Positions 2,986 through 39,816 of a DNA stretch of 39,816 nucleotides are shown piece after piece; positions within the stretch are counted from its first letter, which is position 1, and each line of letters begins with the position of its first letter. The DNA is taken from the sequence record NC_011040.1; one strand, 5' to 3'. The position numbers and the translations under genes were made by a program. Origin of the DNA: Escherichia phage BA14. Under the pieces are notes generated by a model. The model saw only the letters and a program-made list of their open reading frames with translations, had not been told where the DNA came from and did no database searches.

Positions 2986-5637
2986 ATGACTAACGTAATC
3001 AACGCACCAAAGAATGACTTCTCTGACATCGCTAATGCAATCCAGCCGTACAACATTCTGGCTGACCATTACGGTGCACAGCTTGCAGCTACGCAGCTTG
3101 AGTTGGAGCATGAAGCTCACACTGAGGGCGAGAAGCGTTTCCTTAAGGCGATGGAACGTCAAATCAAAGCGGGTGAGTTCGGTGATAACGCAGTGGCTAA
3201 ACCGCTCCTGTCATCCCTCGCACCAAAGTTCATCGAAGCGTGGAACACTTGGTTCACTGAAGTTGAAGCGAAGCGTGGCAAGCGTCCAGTGGCCTACAAT
3301 CTGGTACAGAAGGTTGCACCCGAAGCGGCTGCTTTCATCACACTTAAGGTCACACTCGCTTGCTTGACGAAAGAAGAGTTCACCAACCTGCAATCAGTCG
3401 CTACTAAGATTGGTCGTAGCATTGAAGATGAACTGCGTTTCGGTCGCATCCGTGACGAAGAAGCGAAGCACTTTAAGAACCACGTACAGGAGGCACTGAA
3501 CAAGCGCGTTGGTATCGTCTACAAGAAAGCATTCATGCAAGCCGTAGAAGGCAAGATGTTAGACGCTGGTCAACTGCAAACCAAGTGGACTACATGGACA
3601 CCTGAAGAATCAATTCACGTTGGTGTGCGCATGTTGGAACTGCTCATCGGGTCTACTGGTCTCGTTGAGTTACACCGACCGTTTGCTGGTAACGTTGAGA
3701 AGGATGGCGAGTACATTCAACTGACCGAACAATACGTTGACCTGTTATCTAAGCGTGCTGGTGCACTGGCTGCAATTGCTCCGATGTACCAACCATGTGT
3801 AGTTCCTCCGAAGCCTTGGACGAGTCCGGTCGGTGGTGGCTATTGGGCTGCTGGTCGCAAGCCTCTCTCTCTGGTTCGCACTGGTAGCAAGAAGGGACTT
3901 GAGCGTTACAACGATGTGTATATGCCTGAAGTTTACAAGGCGGTGAACATCGCACAGAATACTCCTTGGAAGATTAACAAGAAGGTTCTGGCAGTGGTCA
4001 ACGAGATTGTGAACTGGAAGCATTGCCCGGTTGACGATGTACCTGCTCTCGAACGTGGTGAACTGCCTATCAAACCTGAAGACATCGACACGAACGAAGC
4101 GGCTCTGAAAGCGTGGAAGAAAGCGGCCTCCGCAATCTATCGCAAAGAGAAAGCACGAGTTTCTCGCCGCATGAGCATGGAGTTCATGTTAGGTCAGGCC
4201 AATAAGTTCGCACAGTTCAAAGCTATCTGGTTCCCGATGAATATGGACTGGCGCGGTCGAGTGTATGCGGTCCCAATGTTTAACCCGCAAGGCAACGACA
4301 TGACCAAAGGCTTGCTGACGCTCGCTAAAGGTAAACCAATCGGTGTCGATGGGTACTACTGGCTGAAGATTCACGGTGCTAACACTGCTGGTGTGGACAA
4401 GGTGGACTTCGCTGAACGTATCAAGTTCATTGATGATAACCATGAGAACATCATGAGCGTTGCGGCTGACCCTATCGCTAACACTTGGTGGGCTGAACAA
4501 GATTCTCCGTTCTGCTTCCTCGCATTCTGCTTTGAGTATGCAGGAGTCCAGCACCACGGGATGAAATACAACTGCTCTCTTCCGCTGGCGTTTGATGGTA
4601 GCTGCTCCGGTATTCAGCACTTCTCCGCAATGCTTCGTGATGAAATTGGTGGTCGCGCTGTTAACTTACTGCCGAGCAAGGAAGTCCAAGACATCTACCG
4701 CATCGTAGCGGAACGTGTCAACGAGATTCTGAAGCAAGATGTAATCAATGGCACCGACAACGAAGTCGAAATCGTGACCAATAAGGACACTGGCGAAATC
4801 ACTGAGAAGCTCAAGCTGGGAACTAAGGAACTGGCTGGTCAATGGTTAGCATACGGTGTTACTCGTAAGGTGACTAAGCGTTCCGTTATGACCTTGGCGT
4901 ATGGTTCCAAAGAGTACGGCTTCCGTGACCAAGTGCTAGAGGATACCATTCAGCCAGCTATCGACGATGGCAAGGGCTTGATGTTCACTCAACCGAACCA
5001 AGCGGCTGGCTACATGGCTAAACTGATTTGGAACGCAGTAACGGTGACAGTGGTCGCAGCGGTTGAAGCAATGAACTGGCTGAAGTCTGCGGCTAAACTT
5101 CTGGCTGCTGAAGTAAAGGACAAGAAGACCAAAGAGGTTCTCCGTAAGCGCTGTGCGGTACATTGGGTTACTCCTGATGGCTTCCCGGTCTGGCAGGAAT
5201 ACAAGAAGCCAGTACAGACCCGCTTGAACCTGATGTTCTTAGGCCAGATTCGTCTACAGCCTACCGTGAACACCAACAAGGATAGCGGAATTGACGCACG
5301 TAAGCAGGAGTCAGGCATTGCACCTAACTTTGTCCACTCAATGGATGGTAGCCACCTCCGCATGACCGTGGTGCGCTCCTATGAGGTCTACGGTGTGGAA
5401 TCGTTCGCACTGATTCACGACTCCTTTGGTACTATCCCTGCTGATGCTGGCAACCTGTTCAAAGCAGTGCGTGAAACGATGGTCAACACTTACGAAGAGA
5501 ACGATGTACTTGCAGACTTCTATGAGCAATTTGCTGACCAGTTGCACGAATCACAGCTTGACAAGATGCCTGAGATGCCAGCTAAAGGTTCTCTGGACCT
5601 GCAAGAAATCCTGAAGTCAGACTTTGCGTTTGCCTAA
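2986..5637 (+). CDS. 1: Single-subunit DNA-directed RNA polymerase (gp1)
   Basis: 883 aa, near-collinear with T7 RNAP as I recall it (e.g. AIWFPMNMDWRGRVYAV, FDGSCSGIQHFSAML, specificity-loop region QPTVNTNKDSGIDARKQESG, C-terminal FAFA). Confidence 0.98.
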   Translation: MTNVINAPKNDFSDIANAIQPYNILADHYGAQLAATQLELEHEAHTEGEKRFLKAMERQIKAGEFGDNAVAKPLLSSLAPKFIEAWNTWFTEVEAKRGKRPVAYNLVQKVAPEAAAFITLKVTLACLTKEEFTNLQSVATKIGRSIEDELRFGRIRDEEAKHFKNHVQEALNKRVGIVYKKAFMQAVEGKMLDAGQLQTKWTTWTPEESIHVGVRMLELLIGSTGLVELHRPFAGNVEKDGEYIQLTEQYVDLLSKRAGALAAIAPMYQPCVVPPKPWTSPVGGGYWAAGRKPLSLVRTGSKKGLERYNDVYMPEVYKAVNIAQNTPWKINKKVLAVVNEIVNWKHCPVDDVPALERGELPIKPEDIDTNEAALKAWKKAASAIYRKEKARVSRRMSMEFMLGQANKFAQFKAIWFPMNMDWRGRVYAVPMFNPQGNDMTKGLLTLAKGKPIGVDGYYWLKIHGANTAGVDKVDFAERIKFIDDNHENIMSVAADPIANTWWAEQDSPFCFLAFCFEYAGVQHHGMKYNCSLPLAFDGSCSGIQHFSAMLRDEIGGRAVNLLPSKEVQDIYRIVAERVNEILKQDVINGTDNEVEIVTNKDTGEITEKLKLGTKELAGQWLAYGVTRKVTKRSVMTLAYGSKEYGFRDQVLEDTIQPAIDDGKGLMFTQPNQAAGYMAKLIWNAVTVTVVAAVEAMNWLKSAAKLLAAEVKDKKTKEVLRKRCAVHWVTPDGFPVWQEYKKPVQTRLNLMFLGQIRLQPTVNTNKDSGIDARKQESGIAPNFVHSMDGSHLRMTVVRSYEVYGVESFALIHDSFGTIPADAGNLFKAVRETMVNTYEENDVLADFYEQFADQLHESQLDKMPEMPAKGSLDLQEILKSDFAFA

Positions 5638-5644
5638 CGGAATC

Positions 5645-5667
5645 TAATACGACTCACTATTGGGAGA
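5645..5667 (+). promoter_or_regulatory. Phage RNAP promoter TAATACGACTCACTATTGGGAGA
   Basis: Full 23-bp match to T7-family consensus except T at -1; transcript begins with a GGGAGACCC...GGGTTTCCC 5' stem-loop. Confidence 0.85.
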
Positions 5668-5727
5668 CCCTTGGGGTTTCCCTACTTTAAGATAACTTTA
5701 AGTTTAACTTTAAGAGGAAACATAATC

Positions 5728-6285
5728 ATGTTTACTTTCATCACTTCAGTAGGCGCTCTCGTATCAACCATTCTTGCAGCAACATACTATAATCGTTCAA
5801 AGGTATTTCTCACTAAGCTAATCAAAGAAGAGAAGAACTCTCATGCACTCAAAGAGAGACTTGAAGATGGATGGCGAGAGAAGCAGGAACTAGCTGGTCG
5901 AATCCGTACCTTAGAGTTCGAACAACAATATGACATGTCGAACCAACGAGAACTCATTGAGCGTCTACGTGCTGAGGCAGTGGAGTACCGCAAGGAACTT
6001 AAAGAAGCCAAGAAGATTATCCGTGAGTATACACACAGTGACATCACGTCTATCAAGTTTACTGCTCACATCCCGGATGCTGGATGGAAGCGCACTGAGT
6101 TCAAGCTGGGTCTTGGCTCGTGTGGTAAGCAAGTCACATGTCTACATTGGGTTGAACAAGCCGACCGCTATCTGCTGACACAGACGTGCACTGACGGTGA
6201 GCGCAAAGAGTTCACCTACTATAAGAAAGATGTAGCGGGTCGCATTGAGATTGCACGTAAGGTTGCAGACAATACGACTCACTAA
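5728..6285 (+). CDS. Hypothetical membrane-anchored coiled-coil protein (gene 1.05 position)
   Basis: 185 aa from ATG 5728 preceded by AGAGGAAAC RBS and a TTAACTTTA epsilon-like motif; N-terminal TM helix, charged heptad-rich middle, Cys-containing C-terminus; sits between gene 1 and gene 1.1. Confidence 0.7.
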   Translation: MFTFITSVGALVSTILAATYYNRSKVFLTKLIKEEKNSHALKERLEDGWREKQELAGRIRTLEFEQQYDMSNQRELIERLRAEAVEYRKELKEAKKIIREYTHSDITSIKFTAHIPDAGWKRTEFKLGLGSCGKQVTCLHWVEQADRYLLTQTCTDGERKEFTYYKKDVAGRIEIARKVADNTTH

Positions 6286-6292
6286 TGGGAAA
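6270..6292 (+). promoter_or_regulatory. Phage RNAP promoter cAATACGACTCACTAATGGGAAA (phi1.1-like)
   Basis: T7-family promoter core; the stop codon of the upstream ORF (6283-6285) lies inside it. Confidence 0.8.
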
Positions 6293-6300
6293 CACTGAAA

Positions 6301-6343
6301 GTTAAACTCAAGGTCATCACTTCTGGTGGCCTTCATGATTAAC
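6301..6343 (+). promoter_or_regulatory. RNase III-type processing hairpin (R1.1 position)
   Basis: Lower stem GTTAA/TTAAC, internal loop, upper stem AAGGTCAT/GTGGCCTT; same element recurs at 6821 and 13571. Confidence 0.6.
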
Positions 6344-6376
6344 TGTCATTAACTATACACACAAGGAAACAACATT

Positions 6377-6526
6377 ATGCGTACCAACTTCGAACCAACT
6401 ACCAAGCGCAACAACGTAATCAATGAACACGGTGCTGAATGGCAGGAACGTAAAGACCGCATGAAGAAACGCCACAAGACACAACGTGGCAACGCTGAGA
6501 AACGTAACTGGAAGGAGGCACTCTAA
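6377..6526 (+). CDS. 1.1: Small basic protein gp1.1
   Basis: 49-aa ORF (below the ORF-track cutoff) with RBS AAGGAAAC; highly basic, as for T7 gp1.1; stop overlaps the gene 1.2 start (TAATG). Confidence 0.6.
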   Translation: MRTNFEPTTKRNNVINEHGAEWQERKDRMKKRHKTQRGNAEKRNWKEAL

Positions 6527-6798: not shown

Positions 6799-6818
6799 TA
6801 CGACTCACTAATGCGAGA
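6796..6818 (+). promoter_or_regulatory. Phage RNAP promoter TAATACGACTCACTAATGCGAGA (phi1.3-like)
   Basis: T7-family promoter core overlapping the gene 1.2 stop; initiating region GCGAGA is atypical. Confidence 0.7.
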
Positions 6819-6820
6819 GA

Positions 6821-6862
6821 GCTAAACTCAAGGTCATCTATACGGTGGCCTTTGTGATTAAC
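6821..6862 (+). promoter_or_regulatory. RNase III-type processing hairpin (R1.3 position)
   Basis: GCTAAACTCAAGGTCATctatacGGTGGCCTTTGTGATTAAC, second copy of the 6301 element. Confidence 0.6.
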
Positions 6863-18157: not shown

Positions 18158-18180
18158 TAATACGACTCACTATTGAGAGG
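18158..18180 (+). promoter_or_regulatory. Phage RNAP promoter TAATACGACTCACTATTGAGAGG (phi6.5-like)
   Basis: Full T7-family match through -1; initiating GAGAGG. Confidence 0.8.
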
Positions 18181-18232
18181 GGTGCCTATATGATACCTAC
18201 TTTAAGTTCTAACTTTAAGGAGAACATTAATT

Positions 18233-18478
18233 ATGTTAACCCCTATCAAGAAGTATATGGAGAACCCACAAGATATTCCTAATGTTCCTCGGAGTGTTAT
18301 GGAGTATCTACAGGTTCAATACAATGCTGGATATGCTATTCAGTCAGGTCTAATCAACCGATTGAAACAGGCTGGATGGTCTGAAAGCTACATTGCCGGG
18401 TTCCTTGCTGGTCTCAACTATGCGTCCCAAACTCTGGATGACATGGAGGCAATCCGTAAGGAACAGGCTGAGTCCTAG
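18233..18478 (+). CDS. gp6.5-like protein
   Basis: 81-aa ORF with RBS TAAGGAGA after the 18158 promoter. Confidence 0.7.
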   Translation: MLTPIKKYMENPQDIPNVPRSVMEYLQVQYNAGYAIQSGLINRLKQAGWSESYIAGFLAGLNYASQTLDDMEAIRKEQAES

Positions 18479-21739: not shown

Positions 21740-21762
21740 TAATACGACTCACTATTGGGAGA
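21740..21762 (+). promoter_or_regulatory. Phage RNAP promoter TAATACGACTCACTATTGGGAGA (phi10-like)
   Basis: Perfect family consensus 4 nt after the gene 9 stop; drives the capsid gene. Confidence 0.9.
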
Positions 21763-39072: not shown

Positions 39073-39095
39073 TAATACGACTCACTATTGGGAAG
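39073..39095 (+). promoter_or_regulatory. Phage RNAP promoter TAATACGACTCACTATTGGGAAG (phiOR-like)
   Basis: T7-family promoter downstream of gene 19, oriented toward the right end. Confidence 0.85.
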
Positions 39096-39180
39096 GGCAC
39101 CCTAAGACAACTTAAAGACACTTATAGACTGCATATTCAAAGTGCATACTTAGTGACTACTCTTAGAGACCCTTACAGTG

Positions 39181-39622: not shown

Positions 39623-39816
39623 TCTCATAGTTCATACAAAGTGTTTACCCCCTATGGCCTCCTTCAGTTCCCCAAAGAGTGCCACCCCTTATGGTAACTT
39701 ATGGTTTACTTAATGTCAATCATTATGTGAGACATTGGGTGAATCATTGGGATGACCACTAGATATAGTGTGTGGGAGACCTTATGACCACTATATGTAG
39801 TCCTCTCTGTGTCCCT
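39623..39816. repeat. Right direct terminal repeat (exact copy of 1-194)
   Basis: Identical to bases 1-194. Confidence 0.95.

Follow-up and report, generated by a model that had tools for sequence, protein, structure and literature searches.

Which part of its genome does Escherichia phage BA14 use to start DNA replication, and does the AT-rich repeat tract behind its RNA polymerase gene take part in it? The window analysed here is the complete genome of this phage (NC_011040.1), 39,816 nucleotides (nt) long, and the element in question is a promoter-leader cassette between genes 1 and 1.05, in which the phage promoter phi1.05 is followed by a hairpin and by three copies of the 8-mer ACTTTAAG. 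The initial annotation had cautiously proposed these repeats as a candidate primary origin. Homology and a genome-wide ranking of AT content both support this proposal. Judging from sequence comparison, the element most likely combines two roles, being both the Berlinvirus counterpart of the T3 and T7 primary-origin region and the leader of gene 1.05; we give this dual role a probability of about 0.6.

Anatomy and composition of the phi1.05 cassette

The cassette begins 8 nt past the stop codon of gene 1. Promoter phi1.05 (TAATACGACTCACTATTGGGAGA; 5645-5667, + strand) is of the consensus phage type and has the same sequence as the promoter at 21740. A homologous site in Kluyvera phage Kvp1 is annotated 'Kvp1 promoter phi1.05'. 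The predicted transcription start (+1) is G5662, located 25 nt past the gene 1 stop and at 14.2% of the genome (5662 of 39,816). The transcript is predicted to open with a hairpin, GGGAGACCC-ttg-GGGTTTCCC (5662-5682, + strand, +1 to +21), which comprises 9 pairs including one G.U. For the hairpin, taken as the 23-nt segment that runs from +1 up to the first unit, the predicted energy was -15.5 kcal/mol (z -5.0), and for the leader 5662-5745 it was -23 kcal/mol (z -2.9). A scan for terminators detected nothing terminator-like near the hairpin on the + strand, and an Rfam scan of 5400-6500 on both strands gave no family at E <= 1.

Two nucleotides past the hairpin, the first exact copy of ACTTTAAG begins (5684-5691, + strand, +23 to +30). 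Two further exact copies on the same strand follow at 5695-5702 and 5707-5714, so that the units are spaced by 11 and 12 nt. Three exact copies had indeed been reported, the first of them at the right place; the second and third, formerly put at about 5696 and 5708, are repositioned here. The final G of the third unit is the first base of the Shine-Dalgarno (SD) core GAGG of gene 1.05 (5714-5717, + strand; read from sequence), 10 nt upstream of the ATG at 5728. Together with its 5' flank, the third unit forms an exact copy of the 9-mer of the T7 gene 10 translational enhancer, TTAACTTTA (5704-5712), which occurs nowhere else in the genome, and the second unit gives ATAACTTTA, with one mismatch to this 9-mer. 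The suggested overlap of the motif with an epsilon-like enhancer is thereby borne out. In the predicted fold of 5714-5745, the SD sequence pairs weakly with codons 2-4 of gene 1.05 (UUUACUUUC), the unpaired probability being approximately 0.25; if formed, this pairing could moderate translation of the gene.

The array stands out statistically. ACTTTAAG occurs 8 times in the genome, always on the + strand, against 1.05 copies expected, and none of 100 shuffles contained at least 8 copies. It is also the only 8-mer of the genome with three non-overlapping copies within 40 nt, and such a triple of any 8-mer appeared in just one of 200 dinucleotide shuffles. Clusters of at least two CTTWAAG heptamers are found in the genome only after the promoters phiOL, phi1.05 and phi6.5. 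The 100-nt zones downstream of phage promoters make up 3.5% of the genome and contain 9 of its 24 heptamers. This enrichment is about 10-fold in BA14, T7, T3 and K11.

As a proxy, every 45-bp and 60-bp window of BA14 and likewise of T7, T3 and K11 was ranked by AT content. The core 5683-5728 is 78% AT, compared to 51% for the genome. The somewhat wider span 5668-5727, initially described as AT-rich, reaches only 67% because it includes the GC-rich hairpin. The AT-rich tract of phi1.05 took rank 1 among 39,772 windows of 45 bp, and 5682-5741 was the most AT-rich part of the genome with windows of 45 or 60 bp. Rank 2 went to the array of phi6.5 (tied at 45 bp, alone at 60 bp), and the phiOL array was among the next most AT-rich windows. 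In T7, the top three were the tracts after phiOL, phi1.1B and phi6.5; in T3, the top two were phiOL and the annotated origin; and in K11 the tracts after phiOR, phi6.5, phiOL and phi1.05 were all within the top six. The ranking passes its positive controls, since it recovers the origins known for T7 and the one annotated in T3.

Counterparts of the cassette in T3, T7 and other relatives

The closest described counterpart is found in T3. Its RefSeq record contains a rep_origin at 5682-5758, designated 'primary origin of DNA replication', directly after phi1.05 (5642-5664). This annotated origin opens with CTTTAAG, the C being at +24, which is identical to the placement in BA14. It starts at 14.9% of the genome (5682 of 38,208), close to the relative position of the BA14 transcription start. 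The record of phage phiYeO3-12 also has a rep_origin (5995-6136) at the place equivalent to the BA14 element. In both of these phages (Teetrevirus), as in BA14, the segment follows gene 1, contains a single rightward promoter, a hairpin from +1 and ACTTTAAGA at +23, overlaps with the leader and start of gene 1.05, and is followed a few hundred bp downstream by phi1.1 and an RNase III site. There are differences as well. The leader units of T3 are degenerate (ACTTTAAG, ACTTTAGG, ACTAAGAG), while T3 (locus L245 of our set) has two more exact CTTTAAG copies, 12 nt apart, at 5737-5756, inside the gene 1.05 open reading frame (ORF) and within the rep_origin. Its AT tract is longer (77 bp, 77% AT), its promoter is of T3-type specificity, and its gp1.05 protein is only partly related to that of BA14, as is that of phiYeO3-12.

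Replication of T7 starts at phi1.1A/phi1.1B and, upon deletion of these sites, at secondary origins, e.g. phiOR and phi6.5; every T7 origin requires a T7 promoter (PMC8373140). In the T7 origin, an A/T-rich cluster containing a single primase site, GGGTC, has been described (PMC12839067, PMC2910064), and this site was reported to be unused (PMC12839067). The start of phi1.1B (5923 of 39,937) lies at 14.8% of the T7 genome. Behind phi1.1B, T7 reads CCTTAAGGtttaACTTTAAGaccCTTAAG, i.e. CCTTAAGG-tttaACTTTAAG-acc-CTTAAG, and continues with AT-rich DNA up to gene 1.1. Like the BA14 element, the T7 origin thus follows gene 1, consists of a promoter and a tract that is among the most AT-rich of its genome, and runs into an SD sequence and ATG; its ACTTTAAG is flanked by CTTAAG repeats. 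It is primed by the phage RNA polymerase (PMC8373140), and by likeness the same would apply to BA14. T7 differs in that it has two promoters in tandem, separated by an RNase III site, where BA14 and T3 have one promoter, and in that gene 1.05 is absent. Furthermore, the T7 origin contains only one exact heptamer, and its AT tract is mostly unrelated in sequence. The GGGTC site, which in T7 is within the AT tract (PMC12839067), is found in BA14 on the bottom strand at 5666-5670, in the hairpin and outside the AT tract; it is the only primase site inside the element, and the nearest one on the top strand is TGGTC at 5895. BA14, T3 and T7 could be aligned collinearly from the promoter over the hairpin to ACTTTAAGA, and ACTTTAAGA fell into the same columns in BA14, in the T3 origin and in the region after T7 phi1.1B. 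The analogy to T7 drawn in the initial annotation therefore holds in position and sequence, both for the AT-rich region of phi1.1B and for the annotated origins of T3 and phiYeO3-12.

How widely the cassette is kept was analyzed in 80 loci of relatives, retrieved via the C-terminus of the RNA polymerase; downstream of the gene 1 stop, these comprise 76 different sequences. Two to four exact CTT(T/A)AAG units were present in 53 of these 76 sequences. The period was 10-13 nt in all 101 unit pairs, and T and A centres were never mixed within an array (53/53 uniform). In 49 of the 71 loci with at least one unit, AGG follows the last unit, and the ATG is mostly located 9-13 nt further on. The order of promoter, hairpin from +1 or +2, array, SD and ATG was invariant. 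It is kept despite promoters of T7-like, T3-like, K11-like and other types, and despite a varied downstream gene, which is either one of several unrelated versions of gene 1.05 or directly gene 1.1. Seven loci (L007, L008, L011, L012, L015, L051 and L075) contain the promoter and the array, with gene 1.05 absent. Since MAFFT misaligns stems of unequal length, hairpin conservation was assessed by folding the sequences singly. A hairpin from +1 or +2 was predicted in 20 distinct sequences, with differing stems and z values of -3.1 to -6.3. Several of them contain G.U pairs, which points to selection on the transcript strand.

Within Berlinvirus, the number of exact copies is 2, 3 or 4, and in L012 up to 5 copies are found when degenerate and separated ones are counted. 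The units are conserved and the spacers drift, although this comparison carries less weight, as arrays were partly chosen by their exact copies. The flanking C and G of the unit are strictly conserved within the AT-rich tract, while spacers and hairpins vary. A simple reason for the uniformity of the centres was suggested by in-silico substitution. Uniform arrays had predicted energies of -23.0 (TTT) and -22.8 kcal/mol (AAA), compared to -25.3 to -26.9 kcal/mol for mixed arrays, which gain 2.3-3.9 kcal/mol through a perfect 7-bp stem between units. Uniform centres may thus avoid an inter-unit hairpin and keep the tract unstructured. According to these folds, an unstructured tract would suit the loading of ribosomes on the RNA or of the helicase on the displaced DNA strand, which has the identical sequence.

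Units behind other promoters and the genomic setting

Phage-type promoters are found at 14 sites of the BA14 genome, and units follow several of them. The pair of repeats initially noted after the promoter at 18158 could be confirmed as two exact copies of ACTTTAAG starting at 18199 and 18212, with an A preceding the second copy only. This promoter (18158-18180, + strand, +1 at 18175) is the phi6.5 equivalent by position and gene order, which are as in T7, T3 and K11, and phi6.5 is a secondary origin in T7 (PMC8373140). The two-unit array, ACTTTAAG-ttcta-ACTTTAAG (18199-18219, + strand), is fused to the SD sequence GGAG of gene 6.5 (ATG at 18233). In all lineages sampled, gene 6.5 is preceded by a promoter, by the 3' part of a site of the RNase III type, by an array that usually comprises two units, and by an SD. 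Within each lineage, the central base of the unit is identical at phi1.05 and phi6.5; Berlinvirus has T there, as do T7-like and T3-like phages, and A is found in the K11-like phages and in three smaller lineages. Hairpin avoidance within an array leaves this agreement between the two sites unexplained.

In T7, phiOL and phiOR have been designated presumptive origins, and a mapped secondary origin lies close to phiOL. In BA14, the phiOL-equivalent promoter (353-375, + strand, +1 at 370) is followed by the array ACTTAAAGACT, ACTTAAAGACG, ACTTTTTGTT, ACTTTAAG (418-457, + strand), part of which was detected by Tandem Repeats Finder (418-443, period 11, 2.4 copies). Behind this array there is no ribosome site or gene start; it ends just upstream of a host-type -35 box, TTGACT (460). 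The phiOR-equivalent promoter (39073-39095, + strand, +1 at 39090) precedes a degenerate array, AAGACAACTTAAAGACACTTATAGAC (39104-39129, + strand; period 10, 2.5 copies by the same program), which also has no ribosome site behind it. Some Berlinvirus relatives have two exact CTTAAAG copies after phiOR, and K11-type phages have CCTAAAG, ACTATAAG and CTTAAAG with an 11-nt period. T7, T3 and K11 each have CTTAAAG at +8 to +17 of their own phiOL. Overall, CTTAAAG-type units at about +8 to +35 after phiOL or phiOR, with no ribosome site behind, were found in Berlinvirus, T7-like phages, T3 and K11-like phages, and their degenerate partners were CCTAAAG, ACTATAAG and ACTTATAG. These units are of the CTTAAAG type in every lineage, including those with CTTTAAG leader arrays; T7 phiOR has no exact unit. 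The ribosome sites of BA14 that have units are those of genes 1.05 and 6.5 only, and the genes behind its other promoters, including the phi9, phi10 and phi17 equivalents, are without them.

The motif is shared with the leader of T7 gene 10 (g10-L), which contains the epsilon enhancer, Enh (UUAACUUUA). Both leaders have a hairpin at the promoter +1 and UUAACUUUAAG directly before the SD, and the exact 9-mer of g10-L lies at 5704 in BA14. T7 has a single copy where BA14 has three in tandem, and the capsid-gene leader of BA14 is without the motif, unlike g10-L. Enh stimulates translation in E. coli, probably via ribosomal protein S1 and not by pairing with 16S rRNA (PMC8748333). Pairing of Enh with positions 458-466 of the 16S rRNA was considered and rejected, being unsupported by the literature (PMC8748333). 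In the literature consulted, phi10 is not among the T7 origins named. A literature search for the motif as a string yielded vector sequences only.

BA14 is a T7-like Berlinvirus (Studiervirinae). The exact direct terminal repeats of 194 bp (1-194 and 39623-39816) indicate that the sequence is a complete linear genome in natural orientation. Comparison of 1 kb (5500-6500) gave 95-97% identity with Escherichia phage vB_EcoP_S523 and with Kluyvera phage Kvp1, and this region matches phages listed under Yersinia, Escherichia, Salmonella, Kluyvera and Pectobacterium. Gene 1 (2986-5637, + strand) is an ORF of 883 amino acids (aa), annotated as RNA polymerase in Kvp1 and S523. Gene 1.05 (5728-6285, + strand; 185 aa) starts at an internal ATG of the ORF 5671-6285 and is annotated as gene 1.05 in Kvp1. 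Its product matches only PHROGs without an assigned function (PHROG 8103, E = 1e-61). The N-terminus of the protein is hydrophobic (MFTFITSVGALVSTILAATYY), and the Kvp1 paper counts the gene among the regions in which Kvp1 and Berlin are dissimilar. A coding reading of the repeats, with the whole TTG-started ORF 5671-6285 as the gene, was rejected as an artefact, since periods of 10-13 nt and changes in copy number break the frame and the SD and ATG follow the array.

Further downstream, the phi1.1 and phi1.3 equivalents (6287-6345 and 6813-6860) are each followed by AAACTCAAGGTCATC...GGTGGCCTT(C/T)(A/G)TGATTAAC, which resembles the RNase III sites R1.1 and R1.3 of T7 and T3. The order of the blocks 'promoter + RNase III site' and 'promoter + AT-rich tract' in T7 is opposite to that in BA14.

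Origin DNA, leader RNA or both

We infer that the element would act in priming, in helicase loading and in translational enhancement, in the following way. The phage RNA polymerase would start at G5662, from a strong promoter, and transcribe rightward into the least stable duplex of the genome, formed by the three 11-12-bp ACTTTAAG units. Some of the nascent transcripts might then be taken over as primers by the phage DNA polymerase, as suggested by T7 biochemistry. The helicase-primase could load on the displaced strand, which would be unstructured and has the same sequence as the RNA, and the first leftward strand would be primed at a primase site further to the right, e.g. the TGGTC at 5895. 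Full-length transcripts would serve as gene 1.05 mRNA. In these, the 5' hairpin (5662-5682) may protect the 5' end and stabilise the message, and the A/U-rich units, including the exact Enh copy, may recruit ribosomes to the SD (5714-5717) and the ATG (5728).

Transcripts from a dedicated promoter serve as leading-strand primers also at ColE1 (RNA II) and at the mitochondrial light-strand promoter, and the unwinding element of E. coli oriC consists of three AT-rich 13-mers. By analogy, the mode of action in BA14 may be alike, with a primer transcript and an AT-rich tandem repeat that opens. There is no sequence relationship to these systems, no DnaA-like initiator is known, and the BA14 repeat is also leader RNA. 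We know of no RNase H processing and of no iteron-type initiator protein in the T7 group. For gp1.05 as a repeat-binding initiator, the only matches were to families of unassigned function, and the gene is absent from relatives that keep the array.

Several observations weigh against an origin at this site. Literature searches revealed no origin for Kvp1 or other Berlinviruses, the Kvp1 paper and record being silent on this point, and none is annotated in the adjacent stretch of the Berlin record that was viewed. The claim therefore rests on homology. Cumulative GC skew, AT skew and the strand bias of primase sites (GGGTC, TGGTC, GTGTC) left the known T7 origin unmarked, and therefore they lend no independent support to an origin in BA14. 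The AT tract of BA14 is short, with about 45 bp compared to 60-77 bp in T7 and T3, and it has one promoter compared to two in T7. Conservation of the units could be explained by translation alone. In nearly all cases the SD is joined to the last unit, and single ACTTTAAG copies are found beside the SDs of T7 genes 7.3, 9, 10 and 17, none of which is named as an origin in the literature consulted. Finally, some relatives do without the cassette. Three K11-type phages (L058, L064 and L077) lack the whole cassette of phi1.05, array and gene 1.05; directly behind gene 1, they have a promoter that is weaker, then a hairpin of the RNase III type and gene 1.1. A fourth relative (L018) has a promoter without units and then gene 1.1. 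The absence of the array from four natural relatives means that the cassette is dispensable. The T7 primary origins are likewise dispensable, as secondary origins initiate upon their deletion (PMC8373140).

Part of this evidence would fit an element that is leader only, i.e. an A/U-rich, Enh-like tract that recruits ribosomes or keeps them on standby behind a stabilising hairpin, with replication starting elsewhere (phiOL, phi6.5 or another site). A leader is favoured by the 49 loci with AGG behind their last unit, mostly at 9-13 nt from the ATG, by the exact TTAACTTTA, given that Enh raises translation, as is thought via S1 (PMC8748333), and by the single units beside the SDs of T7 genes 7.3, 9, 10 and 17 and of T3 gene 2. 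The array always precedes the next gene, whichever gene this is, and relatives without the cassette exist. A leader function would not account for the units after phiOL and phiOR, which have no gene start behind them in four genera, for the two further units of T3 inside the gene 1.05 ORF, or for the annotation of the homologous T3 and phiYeO3-12 segment as an origin. Moreover, a general ribosome signal fits poorly with the restriction of BA14 units to the ribosome sites of genes 1.05 and 6.5. We regard a pure leader as possible, though not probable. Neutral expansion by slippage, or plain chance, with no function at all, has next to no chance of being correct. It is true that copy number varies among close relatives (2-4 exact copies, up to 5 in L012) and that the periods (10-13 nt) do not come in multiples of 3, as is typical of slippage in both respects. 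This reading is contradicted by the conservation data, as arrays are kept across genera with different promoters, hairpins and downstream genes and units persist where spacers drift; a comparable triple was, in addition, seen in only 1 of 200 shuffles.

The units might also act through more than their AT-richness. In that case CTT(T/A)AAG itself would be recognised at phiOL, phi1.05/1.1B, phi6.5 and phiOR, and could either make the RNA polymerase pause or hand over to the DNA polymerase, or serve to load the helicase-primase. Such a role is suggested by the strictly conserved flanking C and G amid variable spacers and hairpins, by the period of 10-13 nt in 101 unit pairs, by the centre that is uniform in 53 of 53 arrays and shared by phi1.05 and phi6.5 of the same lineage, and by the units at the non-coding phiOL and phiOR. 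We nevertheless consider it quite unlikely. Descriptions of T7 origins, to our knowledge, name a promoter and an AT-rich region but no initiator protein, and no reader of the motif is known. The units of phiOL and phiOR remain CTTAAAG even in lineages with CTTTAAG leaders, which weakens the idea of one co-evolving reader of the T/A centre. Uniformity within arrays can be explained by avoidance of the 7-bp inter-unit hairpin, and T7 phiOR lacks an exact unit. In its broadest form, the idea would be that T7-group origins share a defined module of tandem CTT(T/A)AAG units with a 10-13-nt period, located 8-35 nt past the start of phiOL, phi1.05, phi1.1B, phi6.5 or phiOR and read sequence-specifically, and that the epsilon enhancer of gene 10 is a derivative of this module; we hold this to be doubtful. 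The dual role as origin DNA and leader RNA remains the reading that we prefer.

The element itself is expected for a T7-like phage and is a known kind of feature, and if the repeats were leader only, they would be a matter of routine annotation. As an origin, the segment 5645-5760 provides a concrete candidate for BA14, with likely secondary candidates after phiOL, phi6.5 and phiOR, and such candidates would be useful for the engineering of Berlinvirus genomes and for T7-style orthogonal replicons. As far as sequence can tell, a single conserved heptamer emerges from the comparison as the building block of the AT-rich parts of T7-group origins, and it forms the core of the gene 10 enhancer as well. 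This conserved heptamer architecture, common to four origin-associated promoters, is the part that merits experiment. An answer to the question whether the heptamer itself matters for initiation would refine the 40-year-old model of transcription-primed replication.

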